From Actinomycetota bacterium (GTDB lineage Bacteria > Actinomycetota > Acidimicrobiia > Acidimicrobiales > JACCXE01), in assembly GCA_048498715.1 (NCBI GenBank), contig JBEHXL010000009.1, positions 68,017 to 132,016 of the forward strand: DNA of 64,000 bases, given 5' to 3'. How positions within the stretch are numbered: the first letter of the stretch is position 1; every line of letters begins with the position of its first letter. Positions 2,246 through 31,458 of the stretch are shown in pieces. Below the pieces are notes generated by a model. The model was given only the letters and a program-made list of their open reading frames with translations. It made no database searches and was not told where the DNA came from. The translations under genes were made by a program, and so were the position numbers.

Positions 2246-2283
2246 AGGGCTGTAAACCCTACTAGATCGGTCAACATTCCCCG

Positions 2284-2721
2284 CTAGTCCGTATTGACGA
2301 TGAGCACCGAGCAATTCGCGTTGTGGGCGACGGAGTTCGGCACCGAACCGAGTATGCGACGGGCACCGCTCATGCCCTTCGAGCCCACCACGATCAGGTC
2401 GGCATCGATGTTCGACGCGACGTCGCACAGCGCGTCAGCGGCGGGCGACCCGATCTGGTGCTGCCTCACCTCGAGACCGGCGCTCACTGCCTCGGCCGTG
2501 CGGTTGGTCACCTCGCGCGCCCCCTCGGCGGGGTCGACGTTGTCAAGCGCACTCGCCGACAGCATGGCGAACTCGGGATGCGTCATCAGCGACGACATCG
2601 GCCGATACGCCGTGACGATGTGGAGTTCCGCCTGGTTCTGACGGGCCAGTTCGGCGGCGGCCCGCACTGCGGTCAAAGCGGACGGGGATCCATCGGTTCC
2701 AACGACGATGCGCTTGTACAT
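2284..2721 (-). CDS. universal stress protein (UspA family)
   Basis: MYKRIVVGTDGS...LIVVGSKGMSGARRILGSVPNSVAHNANCSVLIV is a typical USP. ATG at 2721 (alternative ATG at 2733). The rest of the 338-aa ORF is a shadow frame. Confidence 0.8.
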   Translation of the reverse strand: MYKRIVVGTDGSPSALTAVRAAAELARQNQAELHIVTAYRPMSSLMTHPEFAMLSASALDNVDPAEGAREVTNRTAEAVSAGLEVRQHQIGSPAADALCDVASNIDADLIVVGSKGMSGARRILGSVPNSVAHNANCSVLIVNTD

Positions 2722-2757
2722 GCGACGCACCATATGCCCGGTGTGCCGTGTTCGTCT

Positions 2758-3381: not shown

Positions 3382-4120
3382 CGAAGGCCGGCACCACGTC
3401 GCCGATCGGTTCACGCAAGACGACCTGCGCGATTTCGTCGTAGTCCGTCGGCTGGTTGTTCACGATGACGAGCGTGGCACCGTTGCGGACCGCGAGCGGC
3501 ACGAGGCCGGCCGCCGGATAGACGCCGAGGGTCGAGCCTATGACGATCAGCAGTGGCGTCGACGCGCACACCATCGCGGCCTTGTCGATCACGTCGCCGT
3601 CGAGTTGCTGACCGAAGCTGATGGTCGCCGACTTCAGGATGCCGCCGCACACAAGGCACGGGGGTTCTTCCTCGCCGGCTCGCACGCGATCGAGCGTCTC
3701 CTCCATCGGGCGACGGTCACCGCAGTTCATGCACCGCGTCTCGTGCACCGTTCCGTGCAACTCCAGCACGAGATCGGGCGGCGAACCGGCCTTCTGATGT
3801 AGTCCGTCGATGTTCTGCGTGACGACCCAGGACACCGAACCGATCCGTTGCAGGTCGGCGACGGCCCGGTGGGCGTCGTTCGGCTCCTTCGTGAAGAAAT
3901 CCGAGCTGAGCCGGTTCTGCCACGAGGCGCGCCGCACCTCGGGGTCGGACATGAAGTAGTCGATGTGCGACGCCTTCTCGGCGGCAGGGTTCTTCGTCCA
4001 CACGCCGTTGGGACCGCGGAAGTCAGGGATGCCCGAATCCGTCGAGATGCCGGCACCCGTGAGTACGACCGCGTTGTCGGTCATCCGCAACCAGTCACGG
4101 ATCTGTTCGACGCCAGCCAT
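3365..4120 (-). CDS. cobB: NAD-dependent protein deacylase, sirtuin (Sir2/CobB family)
   Basis: GAGISTDSGIPDFRG, QNIDGLH, Zn ribbon CMNCG...CLVCGG. ATG at 4118-4120. 251 aa. Confidence 0.85.
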   Translation of the reverse strand: MAGVEQIRDWLRMTDNAVVLTGAGISTDSGIPDFRGPNGVWTKNPAAEKASHIDYFMSDPEVRRASWQNRLSSDFFTKEPNDAHRAVADLQRIGSVSWVVTQNIDGLHQKAGSPPDLVLELHGTVHETRCMNCGDRRPMEETLDRVRAGEEEPPCLVCGGILKSATISFGQQLDGDVIDKAAMVCASTPLLIVIGSTLGVYPAAGLVPLAVRNGATLVIVNNQPTDYDEIAQVVLREPIGDVVPAFVSSND

Positions 4121-4130
4121 GACGACGAGC

Positions 4131-18493: not shown

Positions 18494-19956
18494 CGGAACG
18501 TGCTCGCCAGCTCGATGAGGGTGCGGACGCCGAAGCCGGTGCCGCCCTTGACGATCTCGCCGTCGTTCTCCGGAGCTCGACTCGGGCCGGCGATGTCGAG
18601 GTGCGCCCAGGGCAAGCCGTCGACGAACTCCTGGAGGAACATGGCGCCGGCGATGGTGCCCGCCTGGCCGGGCGCCCCGATGTTCTTGATGTCGGCGATG
18701 TCGGAGTCGATGTGCTTGCGGTAGATCGCAGGGAGCGGCAGTTCCCACACCAATTCACCGGCGCCGGCCGCCGCGTCCTTGACCTTCTGGATTATGCCGT
18801 CGTTGTTGCCGAGCACCGCCGCGATGCGGTTACCGAGGGCGACGACCTGCGCGCCCGTCAACGTGGCGACGTCGATGATCGCGTTGGGTTTCTCTTCTGC
18901 CGCGAGCGACAGACCGTCGGACAACACGAGACGTCCTTCGGCGTCGGTGTTGAGGACCTCCATCGTCACGCCGTTGCGGGCGCGCAACACGTCGCCCGGC
19001 TTGACTGCCTTCGGGCCCGGCATGTTCTCGGTGCAGGTTGCGATCGCAACGACACGCGTCTTCACGCCGAGCGCCGCGCATGCCGCCGCCGCATTGAGGA
19101 CGGCCGCCGCGCCACCCATGTCGGTCTTCATGGTCTCCATGCCCTGCGCGGTCTTGAGCGACAGACCGCCCGAGTCGAACGTGATGCCCTTGCCGACGAA
19201 GAACAGCGTCTTCTTCGCCCCGGGCGGCGCGTACTCGAAGCGGATCAGGCGGGGTGGCTGGTCAGAGCCAAGCGACACGCCCCGCAGCGCGCCGAGTCGT
19301 TCCTTCTCGATCTTCTTCTCGTCCCAGACGGTCACCGTGACGTTGGGAAGATCCTTGCCCAGCGCCTTGGCGGCTTCGGCCAGATCGGTCGGGTTGAGCT
19401 CACCCGCCGGCTCGTTGATCCAGTCGCGTGCGTTGCACTGGTACTGCGCAACGAGCGCGCCCCGGTCGAGGCCCTTTTGCACCGCGGCCTTCGAACTCGT
19501 GAGGACGTAGAACTCGCTCAGGGCATCGGGCTCGCCCGCCTTCTTGAGCCGGGTGAACTTGTAGGTACCGAGCACGACGCCTTCGGCGATCGCCTGGCCC
19601 ACCGCACGCGGATCGAGCCCGGGCGCCGCGCTGGCACCGATGAAGGCGGCGACCTTCGCGAAGCGACGTGCCGCACGGGCACCGACGGCGAACGCGGCAC
19701 GCACACCGTCGACTGTTGCCTCGGCCTGCGAGCCGACGCCGACGCCAATGATCGTGGTGCCGTTGGCGCCCGGCACCGAGTGCGTCATGCCGGCCTTACC
19801 GGTGACGCCGCTCGCTTTGAGGTGCGCGGCGTCGAGATATTCGGCACCGGGCGCCTCTGGCGACACGAGCGGGCCGTCGGGCGACTGGAAGATGCCGACG
19901 ATGAACGCGTCGACGTCCTCCGGCGCGGCCTTCGTCGCGGTGAACGTGATCGGCAT
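18490..19956 (-). CDS. pepA: leucyl aminopeptidase (M17)
   Basis: VGKGITFDSGG, NTDAEGRLVL, and the conserved C-terminal catalytic domain. Confidence 0.9.
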   Translation of the reverse strand: MPITFTATKAAPEDVDAFIVGIFQSPDGPLVSPEAPGAEYLDAAHLKASGVTGKAGMTHSVPGANGTTIIGVGVGSQAEATVDGVRAAFAVGARAARRFAKVAAFIGASAAPGLDPRAVGQAIAEGVVLGTYKFTRLKKAGEPDALSEFYVLTSSKAAVQKGLDRGALVAQYQCNARDWINEPAGELNPTDLAEAAKALGKDLPNVTVTVWDEKKIEKERLGALRGVSLGSDQPPRLIRFEYAPPGAKKTLFFVGKGITFDSGGLSLKTAQGMETMKTDMGGAAAVLNAAAACAALGVKTRVVAIATCTENMPGPKAVKPGDVLRARNGVTMEVLNTDAEGRLVLSDGLSLAAEEKPNAIIDVATLTGAQVVALGNRIAAVLGNNDGIIQKVKDAAAGAGELVWELPLPAIYRKHIDSDIADIKNIGAPGQAGTIAGAMFLQEFVDGLPWAHLDIAGPSRAPENDGEIVKGGTGFGVRTLIELASTFR

Positions 19957-20501
19957 TAACGGACTTCCTTCACTCGGAGGGTGGCGTCACCCTCGACCCA
20001 GCGGGCCATGGCCCACAACAAACTCGACAAACGGTTGAGATACGGCAGCGCCAGCGTCTCGTTACCGGCGACGGCCGTGACCGCCCGGCGTTCGCAGCGA
20101 CGCACGATGGTGCGAGCGACGTCGAGCGCCGCCGCACCGGCGTCCTGGCCCGGCACGACGAACTCCTTCGGCACTTCGAACTTCGACTCGACCTCGTCGA
20201 CGTGACGCTCGAGCGCGTCGAGCATCGCCTGGTCGACGCAACTCGCGCCCGGTGTGAGCTTGTGCCAGTTCTCGGGCAGCGTGGCGAGTTCGGCCATCAG
20301 CACCCACAGGTCGCGGGCGACGTGCACGAGGATGTCGTCGACCTCGCCGCCCTGCGGGAAATGTGTGCGCGCCTGGCCGATGAAGGCCTGCGCCTCGTCG
20401 ACGTCGCCGTAGGCCATCGGCAGCGCCGAATCCTTCGGGACGCGTCCTCCATAGAGCAGACCCGTCGTGCCGTCATCGCCTTTGCCGGTGTAATGCGCCA
20501 T
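19956..20501 (-). CDS. pduO: ATP:cob(I)alamin adenosyltransferase, PduO type
   Basis: The N-terminus MAHYTGKGDDGTTGL matches the PduO/MMAB signature. Its stop overlaps the pepA ATG by 1 nt. Confidence 0.85.
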   Translation of the reverse strand: MAHYTGKGDDGTTGLLYGGRVPKDSALPMAYGDVDEAQAFIGQARTHFPQGGEVDDILVHVARDLWVLMAELATLPENWHKLTPGASCVDQAMLDALERHVDEVESKFEVPKEFVVPGQDAGAAALDVARTIVRRCERRAVTAVAGNETLALPYLNRLSSLLWAMARWVEGDATLRVKEVR

Positions 20502-20532
20502 TGCGAGCCCAGACGCTACCTTCGCCGTCGTC

Positions 20533-21696
20533 ATGTACCCCTGCCACGGCCTCCGCGTGCTCGACCTGTCCCGTGTGGTGGCGGGACCGATCTCGGGACG
20601 CATTCTTTCCGATCTCGGGGCCGACGTCGTCAAACTCGAGCCACCCGAGGGCGACGTGACCCGCGTGTGGGGCCAGATGCGCCACGGCCTCTCGGGCTTC
20701 TACACACAGCAGAACGCCGGCAAGCGGAACGTATGTGTCGACCTGCGCGCCGAGGGTGGAGTGGCGCTGGTGAAGCAGTTGGCGGCCCAGGCCGACATCG
20801 TCATCGAGAACTTCCGCGCCGGTGTCCTGGAACGCCTCGGTCTCGGCTACGACGATCTCGCCGCCGAGAACCCGAAGCTGATCATGTTGTCGGTGTCCGG
20901 CTTCGGCCGCGGCGGCCCCGAATCCCACCGGCCGGCGTACGCCCCGATGATGCAAGCCGAGACGGGCCTCGTGCACCGCCAGGCCGAGTTCGACGACGCA
21001 TGGCCGACCGATCCCATGTTGTCGATAGCGGACACGTTCTCCGGCCTGCACGGCACGATCGCCGTGTTCGCCGCCTTGCGGGTGCGCGACGAGACCGGGC
21101 GCGGCCAGCACATCGACATGGCGATGTTCGACGCGATGGTCTTCACCGACGACTACGCCCATCACGCCATCGACAACGAGCCGGTGCAGCGCCTGGGCGG
21201 CGACGTGTACGAAACGGTGATCGGTCCCGTGTTGTTCGCCGGTCAACTCCGCACGATCTGGGCCGGCGTGAAGCACCTCATCGAGGACCCCGCGGCCGGT
21301 GACGTGCCGATCGCTGACAAGGCCCGTCTGCGGAAGCAGGCGATTCAGGACTGGGCGCTGACGTTCGACAACTTCGACAATCTTGCCGACGCGCTCGACA
21401 AGTCCGGCCTTGCCTACGGGGTGGTGAAGGACCAATTCGAGGTGGTGCGCTCCCCCACGGCCGAGCATCGCGGCACAGTCGCGTCGATCGATGACAACAG
21501 CGGTACGGGCGCCACGCGCGGCGTCGTACAGACCCCGTACCGCTTCTCGGAGTCGGAGTCCGGTGTGCGCGGTCCGGCGCCGCACCGCGGTCAACACAAT
21601 CGTTCGGTGCTGACCGAGTGGCTCAGCCTCGACGACGCCACCGTCGACCTCCTCGTTCGCAAGGGCGTCCTGCAGGACGACGGTCTCGCGCCCTAG
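20533..21696 (+). CDS. family III CoA-transferase (CaiB/BaiF)
   Basis: GLRVLDLSRVVAGP...LGADVVKLEPP is the typical N-terminus of the family. Confidence 0.85.
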   Translation: MYPCHGLRVLDLSRVVAGPISGRILSDLGADVVKLEPPEGDVTRVWGQMRHGLSGFYTQQNAGKRNVCVDLRAEGGVALVKQLAAQADIVIENFRAGVLERLGLGYDDLAAENPKLIMLSVSGFGRGGPESHRPAYAPMMQAETGLVHRQAEFDDAWPTDPMLSIADTFSGLHGTIAVFAALRVRDETGRGQHIDMAMFDAMVFTDDYAHHAIDNEPVQRLGGDVYETVIGPVLFAGQLRTIWAGVKHLIEDPAAGDVPIADKARLRKQAIQDWALTFDNFDNLADALDKSGLAYGVVKDQFEVVRSPTAEHRGTVASIDDNSGTGATRGVVQTPYRFSESESGVRGPAPHRGQHNRSVLTEWLSLDDATVDLLVRKGVLQDDGLAP

Positions 21697-21707
21697 CTTT
21701 TGTCGTC

Positions 21708-22403
21708 ATGGCGACGAACCGATACGAACGCATCGCAACTGACGGCGGCGAGTTCGAGGCGTATTGCGCCCTCCCTGACGGTGATCAGGGACCGGGCGTG
21801 TTGGTCTTCCAGGAGATCTTCGGGATCAACGACAACATCCGCGAATTGTGCGATCGGCTTGCAGGTGCCGGATACGTCGCCATGGCACCCGACATGTTCT
21901 GGCGCATCGAGCCGCGCTTCGAACGCAAAGACGAATCCGGGATGGCGGACGCATTCGCGATCGTCCAAAAGTTCGACGCGGAAAAGGGCGTCACCGACAT
22001 TCAGGCCGCGAGCGCGCACTTGCGCGGCTTGAGTGAGTGCACCGGCAAGGTCGGCGCTGTCGGGTTCTGCCTCGGTGGCGGTCTCGCCTACGCCGCAGCC
22101 GCGTTCGCGGGTGTCGACGCTGCGGTCTCGTATTACGGCTCAGCGGTGAACAGCATGCTCGGCGACGCCGACAAGATCACCGTGCCGATCATGTTCCACT
22201 ACGGCGACAACGATCCGTTCATCCCCGGCGAGAACATCGACGAGGTCGAGAAGGTGTTCGCCGGCCGTTCCAACGTCGAGTTCTTTCGGTACGACGCGGG
22301 CCACGCGTTCAGCAACGCCGACGCCCCTTCGATGTACAACGCCGACGCCGCGTCGCTGGCGTGGCAGCGCACGCTGGACTTCTTCGCCGCGAACCTGGCT
22401 TAA
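21708..22403 (+). CDS. dienelactone hydrolase family protein
   Basis: VLVFQEIFG, GFCLGG nucleophile elbow, terminal GHAF. ATG at 21708. Confidence 0.85.
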   Translation: MATNRYERIATDGGEFEAYCALPDGDQGPGVLVFQEIFGINDNIRELCDRLAGAGYVAMAPDMFWRIEPRFERKDESGMADAFAIVQKFDAEKGVTDIQAASAHLRGLSECTGKVGAVGFCLGGGLAYAAAAFAGVDAAVSYYGSAVNSMLGDADKITVPIMFHYGDNDPFIPGENIDEVEKVFAGRSNVEFFRYDAGHAFSNADAPSMYNADAASLAWQRTLDFFAANLA

Positions 22404-22651
22404 GTCGCCTCTTCGATCAGGCCGCGCTCGTCGAGCAGAGCCAAGCCCTTCTCGACGTGGGGCAGCGGCATCTCGAGTGAGCTTGCGAGCCCCTCTGCGT
22501 TGAGGATCCCGTCGAGCGTCGCCAGCAACGGAACCAACACTTCGCCGGCCGCCCGCCCCTGAAACAACACGGGCGCGCCGCCGTTGACCACTGCGATCCC
22601 GTCCGGCAAGGGCACGACCTCAAGGCCTTCCTTGAGGCGAGGAACGTTCAT
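22400..22651 (-). CDS. stand-alone RRE/PqqD-like winged-helix peptide-binding protein (83 aa)
   Basis: The pattern P.L..G......DG......G.....L.G.A...L..LL..LDG......L...L.......V...L..L...GLI matches the N-terminal leader-binding domain of TOMM cyclodehydratase C proteins. Its ATG overlaps the upstream stop (ATGA). Confidence 0.6.
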   Translation of the reverse strand: MNVPRLKEGLEVVPLPDGIAVVNGGAPVLFQGRAAGEVLVPLLATLDGILNAEGLASSLEMPLPHVEKGLALLDERGLIEEAT

Positions 22652-23196
22652 TCGCCGACTTCCTTGCCGCAGGAGCAGCCGTGCATCCGAACGACGCGTC
22701 CCTCGATGACGGTTTCGTCAGCCGAGTGGCGACGGACGGTTCCGAGCAGGCGGCGCGGCACAGCCTCGACACCGGGCACGGTGACGGCGGTGCGGAGCGC
22801 GCCGATTTCATTCGCTGCGATCTTCACCAATTCGCGCAGTTGCGCGGTGGGTGGGGGCACGACGGCACGGAGCCAGTGGTTGTGGATCGCGTCGTGCACG
22901 GCAAGATCGGTCGCGTGCTGGCGCTCGCGTGCCTCGAAGCACTCGAAGCACGGACCACCGGGCGCGACCACCGGGCCAACCTGGAGACGGCCGTGATACC
23001 CCCACACCGGCACGAAGGGCTGCCGGGTGTTGTTGAGATCACGGGCGACCGTCAGCGCAGGCCGGGAAGCGACCACCACGACAAGCGCGTCGGCACCCAT
23101 TGGGTCCGATGGCCCCTCGTGTTGCACCCCGCGATCACGCAACACGTTGCGCACATCGCGGCCGTACATGCCGACGCCGACGACGAGCAGTCTCAC
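22648..23196 (-). CDS. E1/ThiF-like cyclodehydratase partner domain protein (182 aa)
   Basis: Rossmann-like MRLLVVGVGMYG. VGPVVAPGGPCFECFEAR resembles the GP..pG..gC..C..R motif of the SagC/ocin-ThiF type. C-terminal CSCG. The GTG start overlaps the YcaO stop (GTGA). Confidence 0.65.
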   Translation of the reverse strand: MRLLVVGVGMYGRDVRNVLRDRGVQHEGPSDPMGADALVVVVASRPALTVARDLNNTRQPFVPVWGYHGRLQVGPVVAPGGPCFECFEARERQHATDLAVHDAIHNHWLRAVVPPPTAQLRELVKIAANEIGALRTAVTVPGVEAVPRRLLGTVRRHSADETVIEGRVVRMHGCSCGKEVGE

Positions 23197-24161
23197 GGAG
23201 CGACCCTTTCGAGACGGGCATGCTCCGTCCAGCCGGGGGTCGGCGGTATCGGGCTGAGGCCGGGGACCACGACGCGCACCGCCGCCATGCCGATCGCGCG
23301 CAACTCGTCGCAGGTGAGGTCGACGGCGTACCCCGCGAGACCCAGCGTTCGCAGCCGGGCGACCAACGCCGGCTTGGAAACGTCGATCGCCGGTGTGGTG
23401 CTCGGCGACAGCGGCTCTCCTTCGGCGATCAGGTCGAAGGCCGGGTCGGCTGCGGGCTCTTCCGGGTACGCGTCGAAGGCGCGGCGGGTGCGGCGGCGAG
23501 CCAGTTCGAAGACCGCGGCGTCCTGCGCGTCGGACATTGCGGTCCCGGCCGCGACACCCACCTCAAACGAGGCCGCCCCCTGCGCGATCGCCACAGGCAC
23601 GCCGAGGTCGGATGTCGCGTCGAAGACCGCGACCTCTCCTTCAGCGGTCGCGATGTAGGGCAGCGGCGTGTTGCGTGTGCGGGCGACGGCGAGGGAATCA
23701 CGCGCGGCGCAGTCGAGAAACCCGCCGACGACGGCCGACCCCAGATCATCGGCCACGCAGATTCCGGCGAGCGACGCAGGCCAGAACGACTCAGCCTCGA
23801 CCGCGACCGGCAGTCCGACGTAGACCAGCATCGCTGGGATCCACACCGGCCGTCCATCGTCGAGGGCAAACCCTTCGACCCACCGGATGCGGTCGCGTGT
23901 CTCGAGGGAGGCCACGCGCGCGAGCTCTTCGACGGGGATCGCGTCGTCACCGAGTTCGTCGGCGCTCGCCCATCGCATCATCGGCGCATCCCAGCCGGCG
24001 GCGGCATACAGACCGACCGCGTTGCGCAATGCGTCGTTCGACGCGTCAGCTTCCGTTGGTCCAGCACCGATGCCGACAAGGGGCGGACAATGCTCCGGAT
24101 GTCGACCGTGACCCGCGGACGCGACACACACGAACGGACCCGCGTCGTCCTGCACGCGCAC
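23193..24161 (-). CDS. YcaO-domain protein, short, with a divergent ATP/Mg-binding motif
   Basis: GAGPTEADA..DALRNAVGLY aligns with GKGLTxxxAxxSAxxEAxERY. Other matches: VWIPAMLVY, DATSDLGVPVAIA, and the C-terminal AVRVVVPGLSPI. The first canonical start is GTG 24161, and similarity continues upstream (see findings). Confidence 0.8.
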   Translation of the reverse strand: MRVQDDAGPFVCVASAGHGRHPEHCPPLVGIGAGPTEADASNDALRNAVGLYAAAGWDAPMMRWASADELGDDAIPVEELARVASLETRDRIRWVEGFALDDGRPVWIPAMLVYVGLPVAVEAESFWPASLAGICVADDLGSAVVGGFLDCAARDSLAVARTRNTPLPYIATAEGEVAVFDATSDLGVPVAIAQGAASFEVGVAAGTAMSDAQDAAVFELARRRTRRAFDAYPEEPAADPAFDLIAEGEPLSPSTTPAIDVSKPALVARLRTLGLAGYAVDLTCDELRAIGMAAVRVVVPGLSPIPPTPGWTEHARLERVAP

Positions 24162-24254
24162 GTGCGAGACGAGGCCGCCGATCGGACTGACAAGGGACGT
24201 GAGACCAGATGCGATGCGCGGAACCTAGCCCGCATTGTGGGTAGAACGGCCTCC

Positions 24255-25229
24255 ATGAGTCGGGGCGCCCAGGTGTGGTTGGCTGTGGGCCTCGCGCTGT
24301 GCGCGCTCACTGCATGCGCTCCACGCGATCTCCGAGCTGTCGCCAACCCCGTCGCGCTGCGGATCAACGCCGCGGACGTACGCGGAATCCTGACGCTGCC
24401 GGTGACACCCGAGCCCGTGCCCGCCGTCGTGTTGTTGGCGGGCTACAGCTCCAGTGACATGGACGAGACCGTCGGCAAGACGAAGCCTTTTCGCGACATT
24501 GCGGAAGGGCTCGCGACGCGCGGCATTGCGACGCTTCGATTCGACAAGCCGATCCTGCATCGTGTGCCACCGCCGAACTTCACGCCGACGGAGGAGTACG
24601 TCGACTCCACTCGAGCGGCCGTGGCCTATCTACGCACGCGGTCCGAGGTCGACCAGACCCGCGTCTTCGTCCTCGGGCACAGCTTCGGGGGCACGATGGC
24701 ACCCAAAGCAGTCGTCGGACTGAACGTCGCCGGGCTGATTCTGTTGGCGCCGCCGGTGCGGCCGATCGCCGAGGTCCTTGCGTCGCAGTTCACGTACTTG
24801 CGCAGCCTCGGCGGCACGATCGGTTACGACGCCTCCCTCGCGACGCAGGACGCGCAGCAGTTCCTCGCCGCCGCCAGCAGTTCATCGCTGCGGCCCGATA
24901 CCGCCCTCAAGTCCGAACTCGCCTACGGCTACCACGGCGCGTACTTCCTCGATCTGCGCTCGTACGATCCGGTGCGGACCGCGGCGAACCTGCACGTCCG
25001 GATCCTCCTCTTGCAAGGCCGCCGTGACTACATGGTCACGATGAAGCAGGACCTCGATGTCTGGGTGGCCGGTCTGCGCGACACCGACCTCGAGGTGCGC
25101 ACCTACCCCGACGCAAACCACGCGCTGATCAACGGGACGGGCCGCCCGTCACCCGAGGACTTCGACCATCCGGGCCACGTGGCGGACCGCGCCATCGCGG
25201 ACATGGCCGACTGGGTCGAGCGCCGCTAA
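24255..25229 (+). CDS. alpha/beta-hydrolase lipoprotein
   Basis: Lipobox LTAC. Nucleophile elbow GHSFGG. ATG at 24255; the upstream part of the 709-aa ORF is antisense shadow. Confidence 0.8.
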   Translation: MSRGAQVWLAVGLALCALTACAPRDLRAVANPVALRINAADVRGILTLPVTPEPVPAVVLLAGYSSSDMDETVGKTKPFRDIAEGLATRGIATLRFDKPILHRVPPPNFTPTEEYVDSTRAAVAYLRTRSEVDQTRVFVLGHSFGGTMAPKAVVGLNVAGLILLAPPVRPIAEVLASQFTYLRSLGGTIGYDASLATQDAQQFLAAASSSSLRPDTALKSELAYGYHGAYFLDLRSYDPVRTAANLHVRILLLQGRRDYMVTMKQDLDVWVAGLRDTDLEVRTYPDANHALINGTGRPSPEDFDHPGHVADRAIADMADWVERR

Positions 25230-25274
25230 AGGGTTTAAGGAACACGGCCAGAACCTCGTAGCCTTGGAGCCACG

Positions 25275-28200
25275 ATGCGCGACTACCTCAAGGCCGTTAA
25301 CGAGCGCGTGGTCGTGTTCGACGGGGCCACTGGCACCAATCTGCACGCCCGCGACCTCACGATCGACGACTACGGCGGTCCGCAGTTCGAGGGATGCCCT
25401 GAGATCCTCAACGTCACCCGGCCTGACGTCATCCGCGATCTGCACGCGTCGTTCTTCGATGTTGGCGTCGACGTCGTCGAGACGAACAGCTTCGGGTCGT
25501 TCTCGACCGTCCTCACCGAATACGGCATTCCCGAGCGCGCCTACGAACTGTCGCACCTTGCGGCGTCGCTTGCGCGTGAAGTCGCAGACTCCTACGACGG
25601 CGAGCGTTTCGTCGCCGGCTCGCTCGGGCCGGGCACGAAGATGGCCACTCTCGGTTGGATCTCCTTCGCCGAGCTGCGCGATTCCTACGAGGTTGCCGCT
25701 CGCGGTCTGATCGAAGGCGGCGCCGACCTGATCATCATCGAGACGTGCCAGGACCTTCTCCAGGTCAAGGCGGCGATGATCGCAGCGCGCCGCGCGATGA
25801 AGGCTGCTGGTCGCGTCGTGCCGATCCAGACCCAGGTCACGATCGAGACAACCGGACGCATGCTCCTCGGCACCGAGATCGGCGCGGCGCTCGCCGCGCT
25901 CTCGCCGATGCGACCCGACGTGTTCGGCCTCAACTGCGCCACCGGACCGAAAGAGATGCACGAGCATCTGCGTCACCTATCGCGGTACTCGCCGTTCCCG
26001 ATCAGCTGCGTACCGAACGCGGGCCTGCCTTCGATCGTCGACGGGCACACGCACTACGACCTCACGCCGGAGCAGCTGGCCGACGCACACGCGCACAACG
26101 TCACCGAGCTCGGGATCACCGTGGTCGGTGGGTGCTGCGGTACCACTCCTGGTCACCTGAAGGCGGTTGTCGATCGCGTGCGTGACCTCACTCCGCTCAA
26201 GCGTGAGCCGATCGTCGAACCGAGCGTGTCATCGCTGTTCAGCGCGGTCCCGCTGCGCCAAGAGACGAGCTACCTCGTCATCGGTGAGCGCACCAACGCG
26301 AATGGCTCCAAGGCGTTCCGCGAAGCGATGCTGGCCGACGACTGGGACACGTGCGAGGCCATGGCGCGCGAGCAGGTGAAAGAGGGCAGCCACGCCGTCG
26401 ACGTCTGCGTGGACTACGTCGGCCGAGATGGCGTGCCGGACATGAGCGAACTCGCCCGCCGCTTCGCCGAGCGCGTCGACGCGGTGATGATGATCGATTC
26501 GACCGAGCCCGAGGTCATCCGCGCCGCGCTCGAACGGCTCGGCCCGCGCGCCATCATCAACTCGGTCAACCTCGAGGACGGCGACGGCGAGGAGACGCGT
26601 TTTCACAAGGTGCTGACGATGGCCGCCGAGTTCGGTGCCGCCGTCGTGTGCACGTGCATCGACGAAGAAGGCCAAGCCCGCACCCCGGAGTGGAAGCTGC
26701 GCGCCGCGCAAAAGATTCGCGACCTGGCCGTCAACCGGTACGGCCTACGCGACGAAGACCTTCTCTTCGACGCTCTCGCGCTCACGATCGGCGCCGGTCT
26801 CGAAGAGTCCCGAGGCGACGGCGCGTCCACCATCGAGGGCATCCGCCTCATCTCGCAGGAGATTCCGAACGCGTTCACGACGCTCGGCCTGTCGAACATC
26901 TCCTTCGGCCTGAATCCGGCCCTTCGCCACGTCATCAACTCGGTGTTCCTGCACGAATGTGTCGAGGCCGGCATGACCTCTGCCATCGCGCACGCCGGTC
27001 GCCTTATGCCGCTAAGTCGGATCGACGACGAGGACAAACAACTCGCGCTCGACCTCATCTACGACCGTCGCCGCTTCAACGAGGACGGCGACTGCGAGTA
27101 CGACCCGCTCACCATCCTTCTGAACAAGTTCGAGGGCGTGAAGGCCGGGGCCATCGAGAAGGAAGACCGCAGCGGATGGCCGGTCGAGGAGCGCCTCAAG
27201 GCGCGCATCGTCGAAGGCGACCGCGCCGGTATGGAAGCCGATCTCGACGAGGCGCTCGCCACCACGGAGGCGCTCGCGATCCTCAACGACACGCTGCTCG
27301 AAGGCATGAAGACCGTCGGCGACCTCTTCGGTCGCGGCGAGATGCAGTTGCCATTCGTATTGCAGTCGGCCGAGGCGATGAAGGCCGCGGTCGCTCATCT
27401 CGAACCGCACATGCCCAAGACCGAGGAGTCGACCAAGGGTCGCATCGTGCTCGCCACCGTCAAGGGTGACGTGCACGACATCGGCAAGAACCTCGTCGAC
27501 ATCATCCTCACCAACAACGGCTATGAGGTGTTCAACCTCGGCATCAAGGTGCCGCTCAACGACATGGTCCAGAAGGCACGCGAGGTCGGCGCCGACGCCA
27601 TCGGCATGAGCGGCCTTCTCGTGAAGTCGACGCTGATCATGCGCGAGAACCTCGAGGAGCTGAACGCGGCGGGTCTGGCGACGGACACGCCGATCATCCT
27701 CGGCGGCGCCGCGCTTACCCGCTCGTACGTCGAGCGCGATCTGCGTGACGTCTACGAGGGCCGTGTCTTCTACGGCAAGGACGCGTTCGAAGGTCTCCAC
27801 ACCCTCGACGAACTCATGACGAAGAAGCGCAGCGGCGAACTTGCGTCGGACACCACTTTCGGCATCGAGGCCGGGGGCCGGGTGCTGCCCAAGCGGGAGC
27901 CGAAGCCCACCGTCGATCCGTCGACGCTGCCTTCGCACGCACCGTCAGTCGTCACTGACAACGAGGTGTTCACTCCCCCGTTCCTCGGCACCCGAGTGAT
28001 CAAAGGCATCGCGCTCGACGACATTGCCGAATACATCAACGAGACGGCGCTGTTCCGCAACCAATGGCAATACCGCCCGGAGAGCGGGGAGAACGACGAC
28101 GAGTTCAAGACTCGAATCCGTCCGGTCCTGCGCGAACGGATGGCCGAAGCGAAGTCGCTCGGCCTGCTCGTGCCCCAGGTCGCGTACGGCTACTTCCCGG

Positions 28201-28748
28201 CGAACAAAGACGGCAACGACATCGTCATCTGGAAAGACGACGACCGGACCGCCGAATGGACCCGCTTTTCGCTGCCCCGTCAGCAGCAGGACCCCTACTT
28301 GTGCATCGCCGACTTCGTGAAGGCCGACGTTCCCGACTACGTCGCCTTCCACGTCGTCACCATGGGCAACGTGGTGTCCGAGCACGCAGCCAAGTTGTTC
28401 GCCGACAACAAGTACACGGACTACCTCCACGTGCACGGCTTGGGCGTCGAGATGGCCGAGGCGCTCGCCGAGCTGTGGCATCGCCGCATCCGTGAGGAGT
28501 GGGGCTTCGCGGACCAGGACGGCCCGACGCTGACCGGCCTGTTCCGCCAGCAGTACCGCGGCGGCCGCTACTCGTTCGGATACCCCGCGTGCCCCGACCT
28601 CGAAGACAACGTCAAGATCAACGAACTCCTCGAGGGTGAACGCATCGGCGTCGAATGCACCGAGGAAACCTCGTTCCAATATCAACCGGAACAGACCACC
28701 TCCGCCCTGATTCTCCACCACCCCCAGGCCAAGTACTTCGTCGCCTGA
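25275..28748 (+). CDS. metH: cobalamin-dependent methionine synthase
   Basis: An 1157-aa protein with all modules: Hcy-binding (GGCCGTTP), pterin-binding, B12-binding (GDVHDIGKN) and the AdoMet activation domain. Confidence 0.97.
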   Translation: MRDYLKAVNERVVVFDGATGTNLHARDLTIDDYGGPQFEGCPEILNVTRPDVIRDLHASFFDVGVDVVETNSFGSFSTVLTEYGIPERAYELSHLAASLAREVADSYDGERFVAGSLGPGTKMATLGWISFAELRDSYEVAARGLIEGGADLIIIETCQDLLQVKAAMIAARRAMKAAGRVVPIQTQVTIETTGRMLLGTEIGAALAALSPMRPDVFGLNCATGPKEMHEHLRHLSRYSPFPISCVPNAGLPSIVDGHTHYDLTPEQLADAHAHNVTELGITVVGGCCGTTPGHLKAVVDRVRDLTPLKREPIVEPSVSSLFSAVPLRQETSYLVIGERTNANGSKAFREAMLADDWDTCEAMAREQVKEGSHAVDVCVDYVGRDGVPDMSELARRFAERVDAVMMIDSTEPEVIRAALERLGPRAIINSVNLEDGDGEETRFHKVLTMAAEFGAAVVCTCIDEEGQARTPEWKLRAAQKIRDLAVNRYGLRDEDLLFDALALTIGAGLEESRGDGASTIEGIRLISQEIPNAFTTLGLSNISFGLNPALRHVINSVFLHECVEAGMTSAIAHAGRLMPLSRIDDEDKQLALDLIYDRRRFNEDGDCEYDPLTILLNKFEGVKAGAIEKEDRSGWPVEERLKARIVEGDRAGMEADLDEALATTEALAILNDTLLEGMKTVGDLFGRGEMQLPFVLQSAEAMKAAVAHLEPHMPKTEESTKGRIVLATVKGDVHDIGKNLVDIILTNNGYEVFNLGIKVPLNDMVQKAREVGADAIGMSGLLVKSTLIMRENLEELNAAGLATDTPIILGGAALTRSYVERDLRDVYEGRVFYGKDAFEGLHTLDELMTKKRSGELASDTTFGIEAGGRVLPKREPKPTVDPSTLPSHAPSVVTDNEVFTPPFLGTRVIKGIALDDIAEYINETALFRNQWQYRPESGENDDEFKTRIRPVLRERMAEAKSLGLLVPQVAYGYFPANKDGNDIVIWKDDDRTAEWTRFSLPRQQQDPYLCIADFVKADVPDYVAFHVVTMGNVVSEHAAKLFADNKYTDYLHVHGLGVEMAEALAELWHRRIREEWGFADQDGPTLTGLFRQQYRGGRYSFGYPACPDLEDNVKINELLEGERIGVECTEETSFQYQPEQTTSALILHHPQAKYFVA

Positions 28749-29209
28749 TGAGCATCTCACTGAATCCGATCGGGTACGTGCGCGGCGGTCGCGCCGAGGC
28801 GATCGACGACAACTGGGGCGACGTCGAAGCAGAGATCGAGCTCGACGCGCTGCAGTTCGACGCCGACGTGACCGCCGGGCTGGGCGACTTCAGTCATCTC
28901 GAGGTCGTGTACGTCTTCCACCAGGTCGACGAGGCGAAGATCGAAACGAAGGCTCGTCACCCTCGCAACAACCCGGACTGGCCGCTCGTCGGGATATTCG
29001 CGCAGAGAGCGAAGGGCCGGCCGAACCGCATCGGCGTCACGACGTGCGAGATCGTGGCCGTCGACGGCCTCCGTGTGACGGTCCGCGGGCTCGACGCCAT
29101 CGACGGCACACCGGTCGTCGACCTCAAGCCGTACATGACCGAGTTCGGCCCCCGGTCGGAGATCCGTCAGCCGGCCTGGTCGCACGAGCTCATGGCCAGT
29201 TATTGGTAG
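28748..29209 (+). CDS. TsaA/TrmO-like SAM-dependent methyltransferase
   Basis: PIGYVR, FSHLEVVYVFH, RPNRIGV, DAIDGTPVVDLKPY. The ATG overlaps the metH TGA (TGATG). Confidence 0.8.
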   Translation: MSISLNPIGYVRGGRAEAIDDNWGDVEAEIELDALQFDADVTAGLGDFSHLEVVYVFHQVDEAKIETKARHPRNNPDWPLVGIFAQRAKGRPNRIGVTTCEIVAVDGLRVTVRGLDAIDGTPVVDLKPYMTEFGPRSEIRQPAWSHELMASYW

Positions 29210-29242
29210 GGCCACGATCGACCAACCAAGCCGGGCACCTCG

Positions 29243-29290
29243 CTTGTTGGTCAGTGGTGGCCCCCTGTGGGGCCACGATCGACCAACAAG
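29243..29290. terminator. two-step hairpin between the convergent tsaA-like and egtB genes
   Basis: Outer 10-bp stem 29243-29252 / 29281-29290 and inner 8-bp stem 29257-29264 / 29269-29276. They are separated by a 4x4 internal loop, with apical loop ctgt. Confidence 0.45.
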
Positions 29291-29299
29291 CGTGACCGG

Positions 29300-30502
29300 T
29301 TACAGGTCGCGGGCCAGGCGCACGCCGCTGAAGGCCCACCGGCAGTGCGGGCCGAAGAAGTTGCGGTACGTCGGGCGGGCGTGGCCTTTCGGCGTGGCGC
29401 AGCACGAGCCCTTCAGGACCTGCTGGTTGATCATGAACTTGCCGTTGTATTCACCGACGGCGCCCGCCGCTGGCGCGAAGCCCGGATACGGCGAATACGC
29501 CGATGCCGTCCACTGCCACACCGAGCCGTACCACTCGTCGTCGACGGGATGCAGCCGCTTGAGGTCCAGACCCGAGCGGGCGGGCACCTTCTTCGGTGCG
29601 GCGATCTCCCACTCCGACTCGGTAGGTAGGCGCGCGCCGGACCAGCGAGCGAACGCATCGGCCTCGTACCAACTCACGTGGACGACTGGCTCATCGTCAC
29701 GTACGGCGAGGGGGCCTCCCATCGTGAAGGTCATCCATTCGTCGCCCTCGCGCCACCAGTACAGCGGCGAATCCCATCCGTCGGCCTTGACCCGCGCCCA
29801 TCCGTCGCTCATCCAGAACTCGGGCCGCTCATAGCCGCCGTCGTCCATGAAGGCGAGCCACTCGCCGCACGAGACCAGCGACTCCGAAATCTCGAACGGC
29901 TGCAGGAACGTCTCGTGGCGCGGTGATTCGTTGTCGAAGAAGAACTCGTCGCCGGCGTAACCCACCTCGGCGACGCCGCCGTCGTGCTGGGTCCAGATGC
30001 CGACCTTCGGCCGGTCGATCGGCTGGTCCCACCAGCGAGCCTTGCCGTAATGCGGCTGAGTCGGGTTCATCGCGAGGACGTGCTTGATGTCCATCACGAT
30101 GAGTTCTTGGTGCTGTTGCTCGTGGTGGAGGCCGAGGGTGACGAGCTCGGGTGCGAGCCCGCGCTCGAGCAAGACGTGCATGTTCTCGTCGACGTAGTGG
30201 CGGTAGTCCCCGATTTCCTTCGCTCCCGGGCGGGTAAGCAGACCGCGCTCGTTGCGCGCGTGGCGCGGCCCGATGCCCTCGTAGTACGAGTTGAAGAGGA
30301 ATCGGTAGTTCGGGTCCCACGAGCGGTAACCCTTCAAGGAAGGCTCGAGGAGGAACGTCTCGAAGAACCAGGTGGTGTGCGCCCGGTGCCACTTGGTGGG
30401 TGACACATCCGCCATCGACTGGACGGTCTGGTCTTCGGCCGACAACGGCTCAGCCAACGCCTCTGTCAGCCTGCGCACTGCGTCGTAGTCGAGTGGTTTC
30501 AC
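29300..30502 (-). CDS. egtB: hercynine oxygenase / sulfoxide synthase
   Basis: DinB-like N-terminus (SPTKWHRAHTTWFFE, LFNSYY) plus an FGE-sulfatase-like C-terminus. The GTG start overlaps the egtD stop (GTGA). Confidence 0.88.
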   Translation of the reverse strand: MKPLDYDAVRRLTEALAEPLSAEDQTVQSMADVSPTKWHRAHTTWFFETFLLEPSLKGYRSWDPNYRFLFNSYYEGIGPRHARNERGLLTRPGAKEIGDYRHYVDENMHVLLERGLAPELVTLGLHHEQQHQELIVMDIKHVLAMNPTQPHYGKARWWDQPIDRPKVGIWTQHDGGVAEVGYAGDEFFFDNESPRHETFLQPFEISESLVSCGEWLAFMDDGGYERPEFWMSDGWARVKADGWDSPLYWWREGDEWMTFTMGGPLAVRDDEPVVHVSWYEADAFARWSGARLPTESEWEIAAPKKVPARSGLDLKRLHPVDDEWYGSVWQWTASAYSPYPGFAPAAGAVGEYNGKFMINQQVLKGSCCATPKGHARPTYRNFFGPHCRWAFSGVRLARDL

Positions 30503-31458
30503 AAATGCACCCCGGCGAGAGTCAACAGGAAGTCTCCTGCCTCGTCCGTCCACTGATCCAGCACCTTCAGTCCGGCCGCGGCGAGTTCACGATTGACGCC
30601 CGCCGGAGTGAATTTGGCGCTGATCTCGGTGCGGATCGATTCGCCCTCCGCGAATTCGATGTCGATGCCGAGCGCCTCGAGGTGGACGTGCTGCGCAGTC
30701 AGCGACACCAAGCGCATCTCGATCCAGTTCTCGTCTTCGTTGTACAGCGCAACGTGACGGAACATCTCGACGTCGAAGTCGGCACCGAACTCCCGGTTCA
30801 GCCGCGTCAACACGTTCAGGTCGAACGCCGCGGTGACGCCCTGGGCATCGTCGTAGGCGGCGACCAGACGGTGACGGTCCTTCTGCAGGTCGGTGCCGAG
30901 CAGGAAGGTGTCGCCGTCCTTCATGCCGGATCGGATCGTGTTGATCATCTCCGCCCGTGCCATCGGCGCGAAGTTGCCGATCGTGGAGCCGAGCAGGGCG
31001 ATCATCTGCTTGCCCGTCTTGGGGAGATGGACGAGGTCGGAGTTGAAGTCGCCGACGATGCCGTGCACGTCGAGCCCGGGGTACTCGGCCACGAGTGCCT
31101 CGCCGGCCTCGCGCAGGGTCGATTCGGCCACGTCGAAGGGCACGTACGTCGCGGGCATCGACATCACGTCCAACAGGAAGCGCGTCTTCTCCGAGTTACC
31201 CGATCCGAGCTCGACGAGGGTGTCGGGTTCGGCCATGGCCACGATTTCCTTGCCCCGCTCCCGCAGGATCGAGCGCTCTGCCTTGAAGGGGTAGTACTCG
31301 TCGAGTTTGGTGATCTCGTCGTAGATCTCACAGCCGCGCTCGTCGTAGAACCACACGGGCGACAGCACCTTGTGCGTCGCCGTGAGGCCTTCGATGAGTT
31401 CTTCTCTGAGCGCGACAGAAGCCGCGTCTTCGTCGAGGAATACCTCAACCCGCATCAT
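30499..31458 (-). CDS. egtD: L-histidine N-alpha-methyltransferase
   Basis: WFYDERGCEIYDEITKLDEYYPFKAE, LVELGSGNSEKTRFLLD. Start at ATG 31458 or 31455. Confidence 0.9.
   Translation of the reverse strand: MMRVEVFLDEDAASVALREELIEGLTATHKVLSPVWFYDERGCEIYDEITKLDEYYPFKAERSILRERGKEIVAMAEPDTLVELGSGNSEKTRFLLDVMSMPATYVPFDVAESTLREAGEALVAEYPGLDVHGIVGDFNSDLVHLPKTGKQMIALLGSTIGNFAPMARAEMINTIRSGMKDGDTFLLGTDLQKDRHRLVAAYDDAQGVTAAFDLNVLTRLNREFGADFDVEMFRHVALYNEDENWIEMRLVSLTAQHVHLEALGIDIEFAEGESIRTEISAKFTPAGVNRELAAAGLKVLDQWTDEAGDFLLTLAGVHL

Follow-up and report, generated by a model that had tools for sequence, protein, structure and literature searches.

Can a YcaO protein that has exchanged the residues by which its family binds ATP and magnesium still be an enzyme, and if it cannot, what is it kept for? 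The question is raised by a locus from the uncultured Acidimicrobiales, analyzed here in a window of 64,000 nucleotides, that is, the whole stretch of DNA under study, to which all coordinates refer. To our knowledge, every YcaO activity, whether azoline, thioamide or amidine formation or that of an ATP-dependent peptidase, begins with ATP-dependent amide activation. Surveys describe the ATP-binding motifs E-x-x-E-R, E-x-x-E-R-D, and K/R-x-x-x-E in all YcaOs (PMC8120280, PMC4603692). The gene at issue is laid out as follows.

23193..24161, minus strand: gene for a YcaO-domain protein (322 aa, counted from the first canonical start) from a clade of Acidimicrobiales whose ATP/Mg site is degenerate
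24162..24224, minus strand: probable 5' continuation of the YcaO coding sequence, VPRIASGLTSLVSPIGGLVSH, in frame after a TAG at 24225..24227 and encoding the first strand of the YcaO domain

The product of 23193..24161 is, judged by its sequence and structural model, a genuine, full-length YcaO-fold protein. The family profile PF02624 matches it at 91.7 bits (cut-off 25.7) over profile positions 2-325 of 325. A search of the PDB with the AF2 model (pLDDT 88.7, pTM 0.90) returned 41 significant matches, all 41 of them YcaO structures (TM 0.60-0.73, query-normalised), headed by LynD 4v1v (E 1.8e-17, TM 0.73). The protein is acidic, with a pI of 4.45. The GTG at 24161, on which the residue numbering used here is based, is probably not the true start: its counterpart is GTT in L009 and GTC in L007 and L008. 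The extension differs from that of L009 by nine synonymous and no non-synonymous substitutions and aligns with 'QHLISPVTGVV' of LynD. It contains no ATG, GTG, or TTG but has a conserved ATC at 24213..24215, and only 93 bp lie between the canonical YcaO start and a divergent hydrolase gene.

The positions that would form the nucleotide site fall into five elements.

24006..24068, minus strand: ATP-binding motif 1, G32..Y52 on helix 1, with D43/N47/G50/L51 as the equivalents of S71/E75/E78/R79
23763..23771, minus strand: loop L131-A132-G133, which is S-T-G in canonical relatives
23697..23714, minus strand: ATP-binding motif 2, D150-C-A-A153-R154-D155 on helix 2, consensus E-x-x-E-R-D
23505..23519, minus strand: helix-3 motif A215..E219, canonically K/R-x-x-x-E (E. 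coli R286..E290)
23193..23216, minus strand: early C-terminus, ..HARLERVAP followed by the stop, where a tail of about 25 residues ending in PxPxP (NPWPQPFA type) is missing

The reference for these assignments is the set S71, E75, E78, R79, S184, N187, E199, E202, R203, R286, and E290, which we take to be the ATP-site residues of E. coli YcaO; they are present in its sequence, were mapped by hmmalign and direct motif matching, and were compared with a conservation table of 141 relatives. The segment G32..Y52, GAGPTEADASNDALRNAVGLY (the translation of 24068..24006), aligns without gaps with G60-KGATKKAALASALGEYFER-L80 of E. coli YcaO, which places D43 at S71, N47 at E75, G50 at E78, and L51 at R79. 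An earlier note on this DNA had proposed that the segment follows the YcaO consensus position for position and that the Ser, Glu, Glu, and Arg positions had become these four residues; sequence, profile, and profile-profile alignments bear out the first point, and the codons gac, aac, ggt, and ctg confirm the second. Its reading of the second acidic motif as D150-C-A-A-R-D is likewise correct (gac..gcg cgt gat), with E199, E202, and R203 replaced or retained as D150, A153, and R154. In helix 3, R286 corresponds to A215 and E290 to E219. By the same alignments, the protein has lost more than both Glu residues and the Arg of motif 1 and the second Glu of motif 2. Gone as well are the S/T-T-G loop, the Lys/Arg of helix 3, and the catalytic PxPxP tail, the chain ending at a stop codon that overlaps the start of the next gene. 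The tail closes the active site in canonical YcaOs. The acidic survivors in the pocket are D150 and E219, the latter being Asp in most of the clade.

All of this depends on the alignment register, and an ordinary ATP-dependent YcaO whose substitutions are artefacts of alignment would account for the pattern if the register were wrong. Pairwise identity to the solved YcaOs is indeed low (12-22%), and simply adding E. coli YcaO with MAFFT --add shifted helix 1 by one residue and introduced further errors outside it. However, phmmer pairs GGFLDCAARDSLAV with QGFFEIVERDSVAI of MusD, the family profile pairs the D43..Y52 region with SGLCEAVERYSG of LynD, a MAFFT alignment of 185 sequences gives the same motif register, and HHalign of the clade profile against the profile of canonical relatives (probability 100%, E 4.8e-57, 337 columns) confirms it. 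The register is accepted because these four independent alignments agree. Both motifs are also anchored by flanking invariant residues (Y52, R154, D155, A143, and G133), and there is no Glu or Asp within one residue of 47, 50, or 153. The artefact is already contradicted and is, in our judgment, barely credible. A profile alignment placing conserved Glu residues at the nucleotide site, which the earlier note had named as grounds for giving up its claim, was sought, and both the profile and the profile-profile alignments keep the substitutions. The three long helices of the predicted YcaO structure (37-54, 140-163, and 209-228) carry the ATP-motif positions, and the conditional claim that this YcaO may not hydrolyze ATP as known ones do is thereby supported.

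Comparison of 39 aligned clade sequences, all from uncultured Acidimicrobiales, with the 141 nearest non-clade YcaOs in the 185-sequence alignment extends the pattern from one protein to a lineage. The altered ATP site is common to 39/39 clade sequences, and it is therefore neither chance nor sequencing error. The three ATP/Mg2+-binding motifs of YcaOs are absent clade-wide, at N47/G50/L51, D150/A153, and A215/E219, where the canonical residues are kept in 79-99% of the 141 relatives. In those relatives, motif 1 has Glu, Glu, and Arg at 96%, 96%, and 91% and motif 2 has Glu, Glu, and Arg at 99% each; the S-T-G loop has Ser and Thr at 81% each, as against a variable residue followed by Ala (85%) in the clade. 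In helix 3, Lys at 79% in the relatives is set against Ala at 79% in the clade, and Glu at 85% against Asp at 95%. An unbiased search for positions with 70% or more conservation in the 141 relatives and a change in the 39 clade sequences gave 47 (Glu to variable), 50 (Glu to Gly, Ala, or Leu), 51 (Arg to Leu), 131/132 (Ser-Thr to any residue-Ala), 150 (Glu to Asp), 153 (Glu to Ala), 161 (Trp to variable), 215 (Lys to Ala), 219 (Glu to Asp), and the loss of the PxPxP tail. The last 14 residues of the 185 sequences divide in the same way: every clade member ends in a ..HARLARVA-type sequence and most canonical relatives in ..NP[WF]PQPF[AGP]. A separate scan of contigs with back-translated patterns, which were too specific, recovered one partial locus.

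Within the clade, the old site is held unevenly. Positions 47 and 50 have an entropy of 0 (Glu) among canonical relatives with a residue there and of 2.1 and 1.7 bits in the clade, and positions 47, 50, 131, 138, and 161 rank between the 76th and 95th percentile of within-clade variability. Read from the alignment, such variability indicates that constraint on the old site has been relaxed, with no new residue fixed there. Motif 2, by comparison, has A153, R154, and D155 at 100% and D150 at 95%. D43, one helical turn before position 47, is found throughout the clade (100%), whereas none of the 141 relatives has Asp there. Other features newly conserved in the clade are an R222-R223..R227 patch and a PGWxDHARLARVA C-terminus, and 15 of the 39 members lack six residues from the loop that precedes helix 1.

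Judged against this pattern, fixed D150, A153, R154, D155, and D/E219 together with the gained D43 could represent a remodelled rather than an empty site. The protein would then be a retooled enzyme whose smaller acidic/basic cluster (D43, D150, R154, D155, D/E219) catalyzes a different reaction, which could be ATP-independent, use one metal, or draw on another phosphoryl or acyl donor, with substrate delivered through the partner proteins described below. The invariance of D43, A153, R154, and D155, the 95% conservation of D150 and D219, the new arginine patch and C-terminus, and the constraint on the gene reported in the next paragraph all agree with such a reading. It fits poorly with the motif-1 Glu positions and the S/T loop, which are among the most variable of the clade where a precise site would be expected, and with the deletion both of the tail that closes the active site and, in 15/39 members, of six residues before helix 1; R154 and D155 are also superfamily-wide and may be structural. 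We regard retooling as unlikely, although it keeps appreciable weight.

The strength of selection on the gene is informative in its own right. Relative to the L007 orthologue (96% identical, dS ~0.27), dN/dS is 0.07 for the YcaO gene and 0.009 and 0.033 for its E1-like and RRE partners, in a neighborhood where housekeeping genes range from 0.007 to 0.14. The YcaO protein is thus under strong purifying selection and still has a function, and its gene is not a pseudogene. A functionless, decaying remnant of a dead RiPP cluster would account for the lost catalytic residues, for the absence of precursor and protease genes, and for the independent partial decay seen in sister lineages (P0045/46/51 and P0050). 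It is contradicted by dN/dS values as low as those of neighboring housekeeping genes, by reading frames that are intact and coupled through 4-nt overlaps at each clade locus inspected, and by the depth of conservation among the 39 clade sequences (at 58-96% identity), with 49 positions conserved specifically in the clade and, in a subset of 24, 84 columns without variation. Such a remnant is very improbable.

The partners just mentioned are encoded directly downstream.

22648..23196, minus strand: miniature E1-like partner of 182 aa that carries a Cys4 site (C83, C86, C174, C176), its start overlapping the YcaO stop by 4 nt
22400..22651, minus strand: 83-aa stand-alone RRE-type winged-helix protein, its start overlapping the E1-like stop by 4 nt

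The 182-aa protein is matched by TIGR03882 at 7e-07, below the cut-off of that profile, and its own family profile matches LynD residues 131-215 (E 3e-4). Foldseek with its AF2 model (pLDDT 91.9) ranks the E1-like domains of LynD and TruD first, followed by McbB and MusD and then by MccB, MoeB, and ThiF. An ATP-competent E1-like partner was considered on account of a G-x-G-x-x-G-like N-terminus and rejected, as G7 and G9 are not conserved in the family and the structures most similar to that of the partner, the E1-like domains of LynD/TruD and McbB, are not known to adenylate. For the 83-aa protein, the family profile finds PbtF as its best PDB match (8t19, an 86-residue chain, E 0.0016, positions 15-79), the N-termini of MusD and LynD match as well, and the protein is homologous to the N-terminus of an RRE/E1-like/nitroreductase fusion in L005; on the strength of these matches and the fusion, it is assigned as an RRE. 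An ArsR-like regulator was rejected, since the transcription-factor matches span the helix-turn-helix only. With an E1-like protein and an RRE as partners, the trio comprises the three domains of a LynD/McbBD-type cyclodehydratase, and the gene overlaps together with this homology suggest that the three proteins form a complex.

A complex of this kind raises another alternative, in which the YcaO protein is a non-catalytic subunit that pairs with a competent YcaO or another enzyme encoded elsewhere and provides substrate recognition only. An adaptor role would agree with the intact fold and the conservation of the partners, and solved YcaO structures are dimeric. In micrococcin biosynthesis, a separate scaffold protein passes substrate to two enzymes (PMC10634744). 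Against a mixed complex, a tblastn search of the 64-kb window recovers only the YcaO gene itself, with no further YcaO and no dehydrogenase or fusion of the SagB type, and no second YcaO or SagB homologue is found in the 7-21 kb around the orthologues. We consider it improbable.

The surroundings of the cassette preserve part of its history. The nine related loci where gene order is visible (L001, L002, L004, L007, L008, L009, L010, L012, and L013) share the cassette and its synteny with metH, a CoA-transferase gene, and a cob-adenosyltransferase gene. The clade is monophyletic, and its sister group includes P0043 from L010, which keeps every motif (E-G-L-E-H-Y, E-C-V-E-R-D, and an NPFPVPFA tail). 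Before P0043, and at L010 alone, lie an ORF of 57 aa that contains Cys and a gene for a PqqD-M50 peptidase. Both are absent from the window, from the partly degenerate L004, L012, and L013, and from the clade loci compared, and tblastn of the L010 precursor and M50 peptidase against the window and L001-L010 yields, outside L010, only matches with E of at least 0.4. No Cys/Ser/Thr-rich precursor gene was found adjacent to the YcaO gene, the tblastn search covering homologues of the L010 57-aa ORF in the window; a precursor unrelated in sequence may be encoded elsewhere in the genome. The association of an intact site with a nearby precursor is seen at one locus, L010. Partial decay in sister lineages takes other forms, with Glu replaced by Lys and no tail in P0045/46/51 and N..R-N in P0050.

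The reading we favor, and hold to be probable with some reserve, is that a RiPP cyclodehydratase has been exapted into a non-catalytic pseudo-enzyme complex that binds peptides or proteins or serves as a scaffold or regulator. A non-catalytic role is the most likely one in view of the lost ATP site, the lost precursor and protease, and the strong purifying selection on the trio. The Acidimicrobiales ancestor would have carried a RiPP gene cluster beside metH; in the lineage of the window, the precursor and protease genes would have been lost and the ATP site would have decayed, while purifying selection kept the three proteins. The YcaO would no longer be capable of canonical Mg-ATP-dependent backbone-amide activation, and YcaO, E1-like protein, and RRE would together be the equivalent of a three-domain azoline-type cyclodehydratase (LynD, McbB/McbD) whose present role is that of a pseudo-cyclodehydratase. 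The fold, the residue losses and their conservation across the clade, the selection, the identity of the partners, and the synteny are what the data show; the loss of ATP use, the association of the three proteins, and their binding role are what we infer from them. Some pseudo-enzymes recognized by missing motifs do still bind nucleotide.

If true, this would be a natural case of separation of function, revealing what an RRE/E1-like/YcaO assembly is capable of once catalysis is gone and the substrate-recognition partners are kept. From an intact site with a precursor gene, through partial decay, to full decay, the sister lineages can be ordered in a gradient that could reveal how a biosynthetic enzyme turns into a pseudo-enzyme. 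Such loci will be scored wrongly by mining pipelines in which any match to PF02624 counts as a RiPP cyclodehydratase. No report of a pseudo-YcaO, or of a YcaO without an ATP site, was found in the literature. Tentatively, the locus may be the first YcaO-derived system without Mg-ATP amide activation, either as a housekeeping or regulatory pseudo-cyclodehydratase or as a D43/D150/R154/D155/D219 pocket with a new reaction. A selected, monophyletic clade without the ATP site contrasts with the universal motifs of the surveys (PMC8120280, PMC4603692).

Among the closest known systems are the cyanobactin heterocyclases LynD/TruD/PatD and MusD (PDB 4v1t, 4bs9, 7u58), which fuse the same RRE, E1-like, and YcaO domains. 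This group provides the best profile and fold matches for the window YcaO and E1-like protein, and its N-terminal RRE is matched by the 83-aa protein. In contrast, the window has three separate, co-translated genes in reverse order (YcaO, E1-like, RRE), no adjacent precursor or protease, and a YcaO that has neither the PxPxP tail nor the ligands of E-x-x-E-R and E-x-x-E. Of the features of azoline-type TOMM proteins, the E1-like and RRE partners are present as separate genes, whereas the C-terminal PxPxP is absent and TIGR03604 (TOMM SagD) reaches 86.3 bits, below its cut-off of 219.25. The orthologue P0043 in L010 is 45% identical to the window YcaO and belongs to the same three-gene cassette adjoining metH, and it differs in its intact motifs and tail and in the 57-aa Cys ORF and PqqD-M50 peptidase upstream.

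The microcin B17 enzymes McbB/McbD (6gos/6gri) resemble the window in pairing a YcaO with a discrete E1-like partner, and McbB superposes on the 182-aa partner with a TM of 0.69. McbD has an Mg-binding Glu, Thr148, and a functional C-terminal Pro396, whereas in the window A132 replaces the Ser/Thr and there is no tail; the E167A mutation all but abolishes McbD activity, and both Thr148 and the C-terminal Pro matter as well (PMC6395948). By motif position only, L131-A132-G133 appears to correspond to the conserved 147-151 element of McbD that includes Thr148. The 64-kb window, unlike the microcin B17 system, has no McbC/SagB-type dehydrogenase.

E. coli YcaO (4q84-86) and the methanogen McrA-thioamidating YcaOs (6ci7, 6pe3) share the fold of the window YcaO, which is likewise acidic. 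E. coli YcaO thioamidates uL16 Met82, and the group sets a precedent for a vertically inherited, chromosomal YcaO whose substrate is a cellular protein and not a RiPP precursor (PMC13063428). These proteins keep every ATP-site residue, whereas the window YcaO has Ala at E202, no TfuA, and no C-terminal extra domain; no TfuA family occurs among the precomputed Pfam hits of called genes in L001, L002, L007, and L009. The window YcaO reaches 24.1 bits with the E. coli-type profile TIGR00702 (cut-off 75.65) and is 322 aa long, against 586 aa for the E. coli protein; with the TfuA-associated thioamide profile TIGR03266 it reaches 30.9 bits (cut-off 365). Replacing any ATP-binding residue of E. coli YcaO leads to incomplete thioamidation, with E202A among the variants co-expressed instead of the wild type (PMC13063428), and by alignment A153 is the natural equivalent of that variant. 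Single Mg-ligand mutants of McbD and E. coli YcaO keep slow or incomplete activity (PMC6395948, PMC13063428). The conceptual analogue lies outside the superfamily, in pseudokinases and other pseudo-enzymes: their fold is unrelated and their distribution eukaryote-centered, but their folds too are kept under selection after the loss of nucleotide or metal ligands and serve as scaffolds and regulators (PMC4718504).

A full-length YcaO domain is encoded by the first gene of a three-gene cassette in the window, which lies as follows.

23193..24161, minus strand: YcaO open reading frame, 322 aa
24068..24006, minus strand: YcaO residues 32-52, motif 1 segment, GAGPTEADASNDALRNAVGLY
22648..23196, minus strand: E1-like partner, 182 aa
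22400..22651, minus strand: RRE partner, 83 aa

The Pfam profile PF02624 is spanned entirely by the 322-aa protein at 91.7 bits (cut-off 25.7), and its AlphaFold2 model, with 23 homologues as input, is confident (pLDDT 88.7, pTM 0.90). All 41 significant PDB structure matches of the model are YcaOs (LynD, MusD, TruD, two methanogen YcaOs, E. coli YcaO, and McbD). Curated subfamily models score far under their cut-offs (TOMM SagD, 86 vs 219; McrA-type, 31 vs 365; E. coli-type, 24 vs 76). The window YcaO belongs to a clade of uncultured Acidimicrobiales (39 aligned sequences) whose members are named in source databases only as 'YcaO-like family protein' or 'S12 methylthiotransferase accessory factor'.

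The start of the gene is apparently a non-canonical codon within 24162..24227 (minus strand). The 21 codons 5' of the GTG at 24161, from which residues are numbered, encode the YcaO domain's first strand, VPRIASGLTSLVSPIGGLVSH, and differ from the 79% identical orthologue of the related locus L009 by nine synonymous and no non-synonymous changes. This GTG is GTT in L009 and GTC in L007 and L008. An in-frame TAG lies immediately upstream of the stretch, no ATG, GTG, or TTG occurs between TAG and GTG, and the only near-cognate codon is a conserved ATC (24213..24215). Clade proteins are truncated by gene callers, such as P0004, called at 262 aa.

The earlier note had aligned motif 1 position for position with the YcaO consensus and read substitutions at the ATP/Mg2+-binding residues, a register that every method used upholds. 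On the DNA, the codons gac, aac, ggt, and ctg and the D150-C-A-A-R-D segment read as it had quoted them. In phmmer, window GGFLDCAARDSLAV pairs with MusD QGFFEIVERDSVAI, and the family profile pairs D43..Y52 with LynD SGLCEAVERYSG. E. coli YcaO (sequence from MG1655) aligns its G60-KGATKKAALASALGEYFERL with G32..Y52 gaplessly, giving S71 to D43, E75 to N47, E78 to G50, and R79 to L51; hmmalign adds E199 to D150, E202 to A153, R203 to R154, S184 to C135, N187 to D138, R286 to A215, and E290 to E219. A clade-only profile, aligned by HHalign with one built from 30 canonical relatives (probability 100%, E 4.8e-57, 337 columns), places 'DAlr~Al~LY' over 'AvaEAlERY' in motif 1, 'LD~vARD' over 'lEviERD' in motif 2, 'S~aG' over 'STG' in the loop, and 'A~~aA~~DL' over 'A~~K~lrE' in helix 3. 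The substituted positions map to the model's three long helices (37-54, 140-163, and 209-228); three long helices form the ATP co-ordination sphere of McbD (PMC6395948). The helix placement and the concordant sequence, profile, and profile-profile alignments therefore put no conserved Glu at the nucleotide site, and that the substitutions are an artefact of alignment is highly improbable.

The loss at the ATP site is wider than the earlier note stated and extends throughout the clade. A 185-sequence alignment was screened, with no prior assumptions, for positions at least 70% conserved in the 141 nearest non-clade YcaOs yet differing in the 39 clade sequences.

Conserved positions of relatives that differ in the clade (position: relatives, n = 141; clade, n = 39)
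47: E 96%; R/D/H/N/A
50: E 96%; G/A/L
51: R 91%; L 90%
131-132: S-T 81%; variable, then A 85%
150: E 99%; D 95%
153: E 99%; A 100%
161: W 96%; variable
215: K 79%; A 79%
219: E 85%; D 95% (window, E)

All clade members end ∼25 residues early, without the NPWPQPFA-type PxPxP tail that most relatives have, and 15 of the 39 carry a six-residue deletion in the G-x-G-x-T loop ahead of helix 1. In E. coli YcaO, substitution at any ATP-binding residue leads to incomplete thioamidation, with E202A among the co-expressed variants (PMC13063428); in McbD, E167A abolishes nearly all activity, and both Thr148 and Pro396 at the C-terminus matter (PMC6395948). Two surveys report ATP-binding motifs or the pocket in all YcaOs examined (PMC8120280, PMC4603692), and no description of an inactive or pseudo-YcaO was found in the accessible literature. 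The clade is narrow, since an exhaustive HMMER scan of 1.84 billion representative proteins returned only five matches below 1e-30; the remaining 145 listed matches are YcaOs at greater distance, whose motifs are canonical in nearly every case.

A clade-specific basic patch, L-x-R-R-R-x-R-R, lies at the C-terminal end of helix 3 (residues 220-227; window 23481..23504, minus strand). R222, R223, and R227 occur in 95-97% of the clade vs at most 3% of canonical relatives, and the protein is otherwise acidic (pI 4.45). The patch could be a new interaction surface.

The YcaO gene is not a pseudogene, as seen in comparison with the 96% identical orthologue of L007 (dS ∼0.27).

dN/dS, window vs L007
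YcaO: 0.070
E1-like partner: 0.009
RRE: 0.033
Dienelactone hydrolase, neighbour: 0.14
CoA-transferase, neighbour: 0.06
Cob(I)alamin adenosyltransferase, neighbour: 0.007

A functionless relic is accordingly very unlikely. Within the clade, positions 47 and 50, formerly Mg ligands, are together with 131, 138, and 161 among the most variable (76th-95th entropy percentile), and there is no variation at 43, 153, 154, and 155 and almost none at 150 and 219; in a protein with low dN/dS, this indicates that the old site is under relaxed constraint and the whole protein tightly maintained. Certain residues of the pocket have become fixed in a new state, as D43, present in 100% of the clade, is never Asp among relatives. 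An active site remodelled around D43/D150/R154/D155/D219 is the main rival explanation and a real if distinctly lesser possibility. The favoured reading is that the protein is probably a pseudo-enzyme, a decayed cyclodehydratase retained for an ATP-independent role, for which we infer the state of ATP binding, complex formation, and the ligand alike. A role as adaptor for an enzyme encoded elsewhere is unlikely; this, the relic, and the artefact are less likely or already contradicted.

The neighbourhood of the cassette is conserved in nine related loci in which gene order can be read, each from an uncultured member of Acidimicrobiales or Actinomycetota, with metH, a family III CoA-transferase, and a PduO-type adenosyltransferase, and in most loci also trmO, egtB, dienelactone hydrolase, and leucyl aminopeptidase. 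In the window (19956..30553), L001, and L007, the cassette is surrounded by genes for one-carbon, cobalamin, and thiol metabolism that form a conserved block (PduO-type cob(I)alamin adenosyltransferase, family III CoA-transferase, cobalamin-dependent MetH, a TrmO-like protein, and EgtB), to which L001 adds EgtD and MsrB. YcaO lies directly 3' of metH in L004, L012, and L013.

In a neighbour-joining tree the degenerate clade is monophyletic, and its sister is a small group with mixed motif states. P0043 keeps all motifs and the tail; in P0045, P0046, and P0051, E47 is replaced by K and the tail is lost; in P0050, motif 1 reads N..R-N but E-x-x-E-R-D is kept. At the P0050 locus, L012 (2780..5933), metH is called as four ORFs (S-methyl_trans/Pterin_bind, B12-binding, unassigned, and Met_synt_B12), probably through frameshift errors in this long-contig assembly, so the unusual 474-aa length and the motif state of P0050 need caution. 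Only L010, the P0043 locus, has two extra genes between metH and YcaO. The first is a 57-aa ORF with no Pfam match, an acidic N-terminal half, a C-terminal half with four Cys (..QCVIACYPPDPGGGLPPMQCVIG), and a core ..SLCDLIAPPQCVIACYPPDPGGGLPPMQCVIG in which QCVI is repeated; the second encodes a membrane peptidase of family M50 whose N-terminal domain is PqqD-like. The order 57-aa ORF, PqqD-M50 peptidase, YcaO with all canonical motifs, E1-like, and RRE looks like a candidate RiPP cluster (L010 943..2173) beside metH in the sister lineage. By tblastn, neither the ORF nor the peptidase has homologues in the window or the clade loci examined, and the 64-kb window holds no second YcaO or SagB-type dehydrogenase.

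The most economical reading is a two-step loss. An ancestral E1-like-dependent azoline-type cyclodehydratase cluster would have lost its precursor and protease, and next the YcaO would have lost what it needs for Mg-ATP-dependent amide activation. The assembly of three proteins would be kept for a function without that chemistry, most plausibly peptide or protein binding or scaffolding via the RRE and conserved surfaces. A selected YcaO clade without a predicted ATP site would surprise the specialist; its basis is purely computational, in uncultured organisms.

The partner genes lie on the YcaO strand, each overlapping the preceding gene by 4 nt, which suggests translational coupling. The RRE gene and the plus-strand dienelactone-hydrolase gene, which ends at 22403, overlap convergently at their 3' ends by 4 nt (22400..22403), as in L002, L007, L008, and L009; in L001 the hydrolase gene has moved to the opposite flank of the cassette. 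Four Cys of the 182-aa protein are invariant, its predicted fold is confident (pLDDT 91.9), and its homologues (70-90% identity, no Pfam domain recorded) are co-distributed with the YcaO clade. Its family profile matches LynD residues 131-215, and its structural matches are, best first, the E1-like domains of LynD/TruD, McbB and MusD, then MccB, MoeB, and ThiF. The top PDB match of the 83-aa protein is PbtF (8t19, 86-residue chain), the N-termini of MusD and LynD match too, and it aligns to the N-terminus of the RRE/E1-like/nitroreductase fusion in L005. With its two E1-like modules, this locus (985..5963) has an unusual architecture for a TOMM: after the more distant relative P0047, whose motifs are canonical, come a 220-aa mini E1-like protein and then a protein of at least 849 aa in which the N-terminus is RRE-like and a second E1-like region, bearing CxxC motifs, is combined with a SagB-type nitroreductase domain. 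Given the E1-like and RRE identities of the partners, the trio therefore corresponds to the three domains of a cyanobactin-type heterocyclase, here as separate genes and in reverse order.
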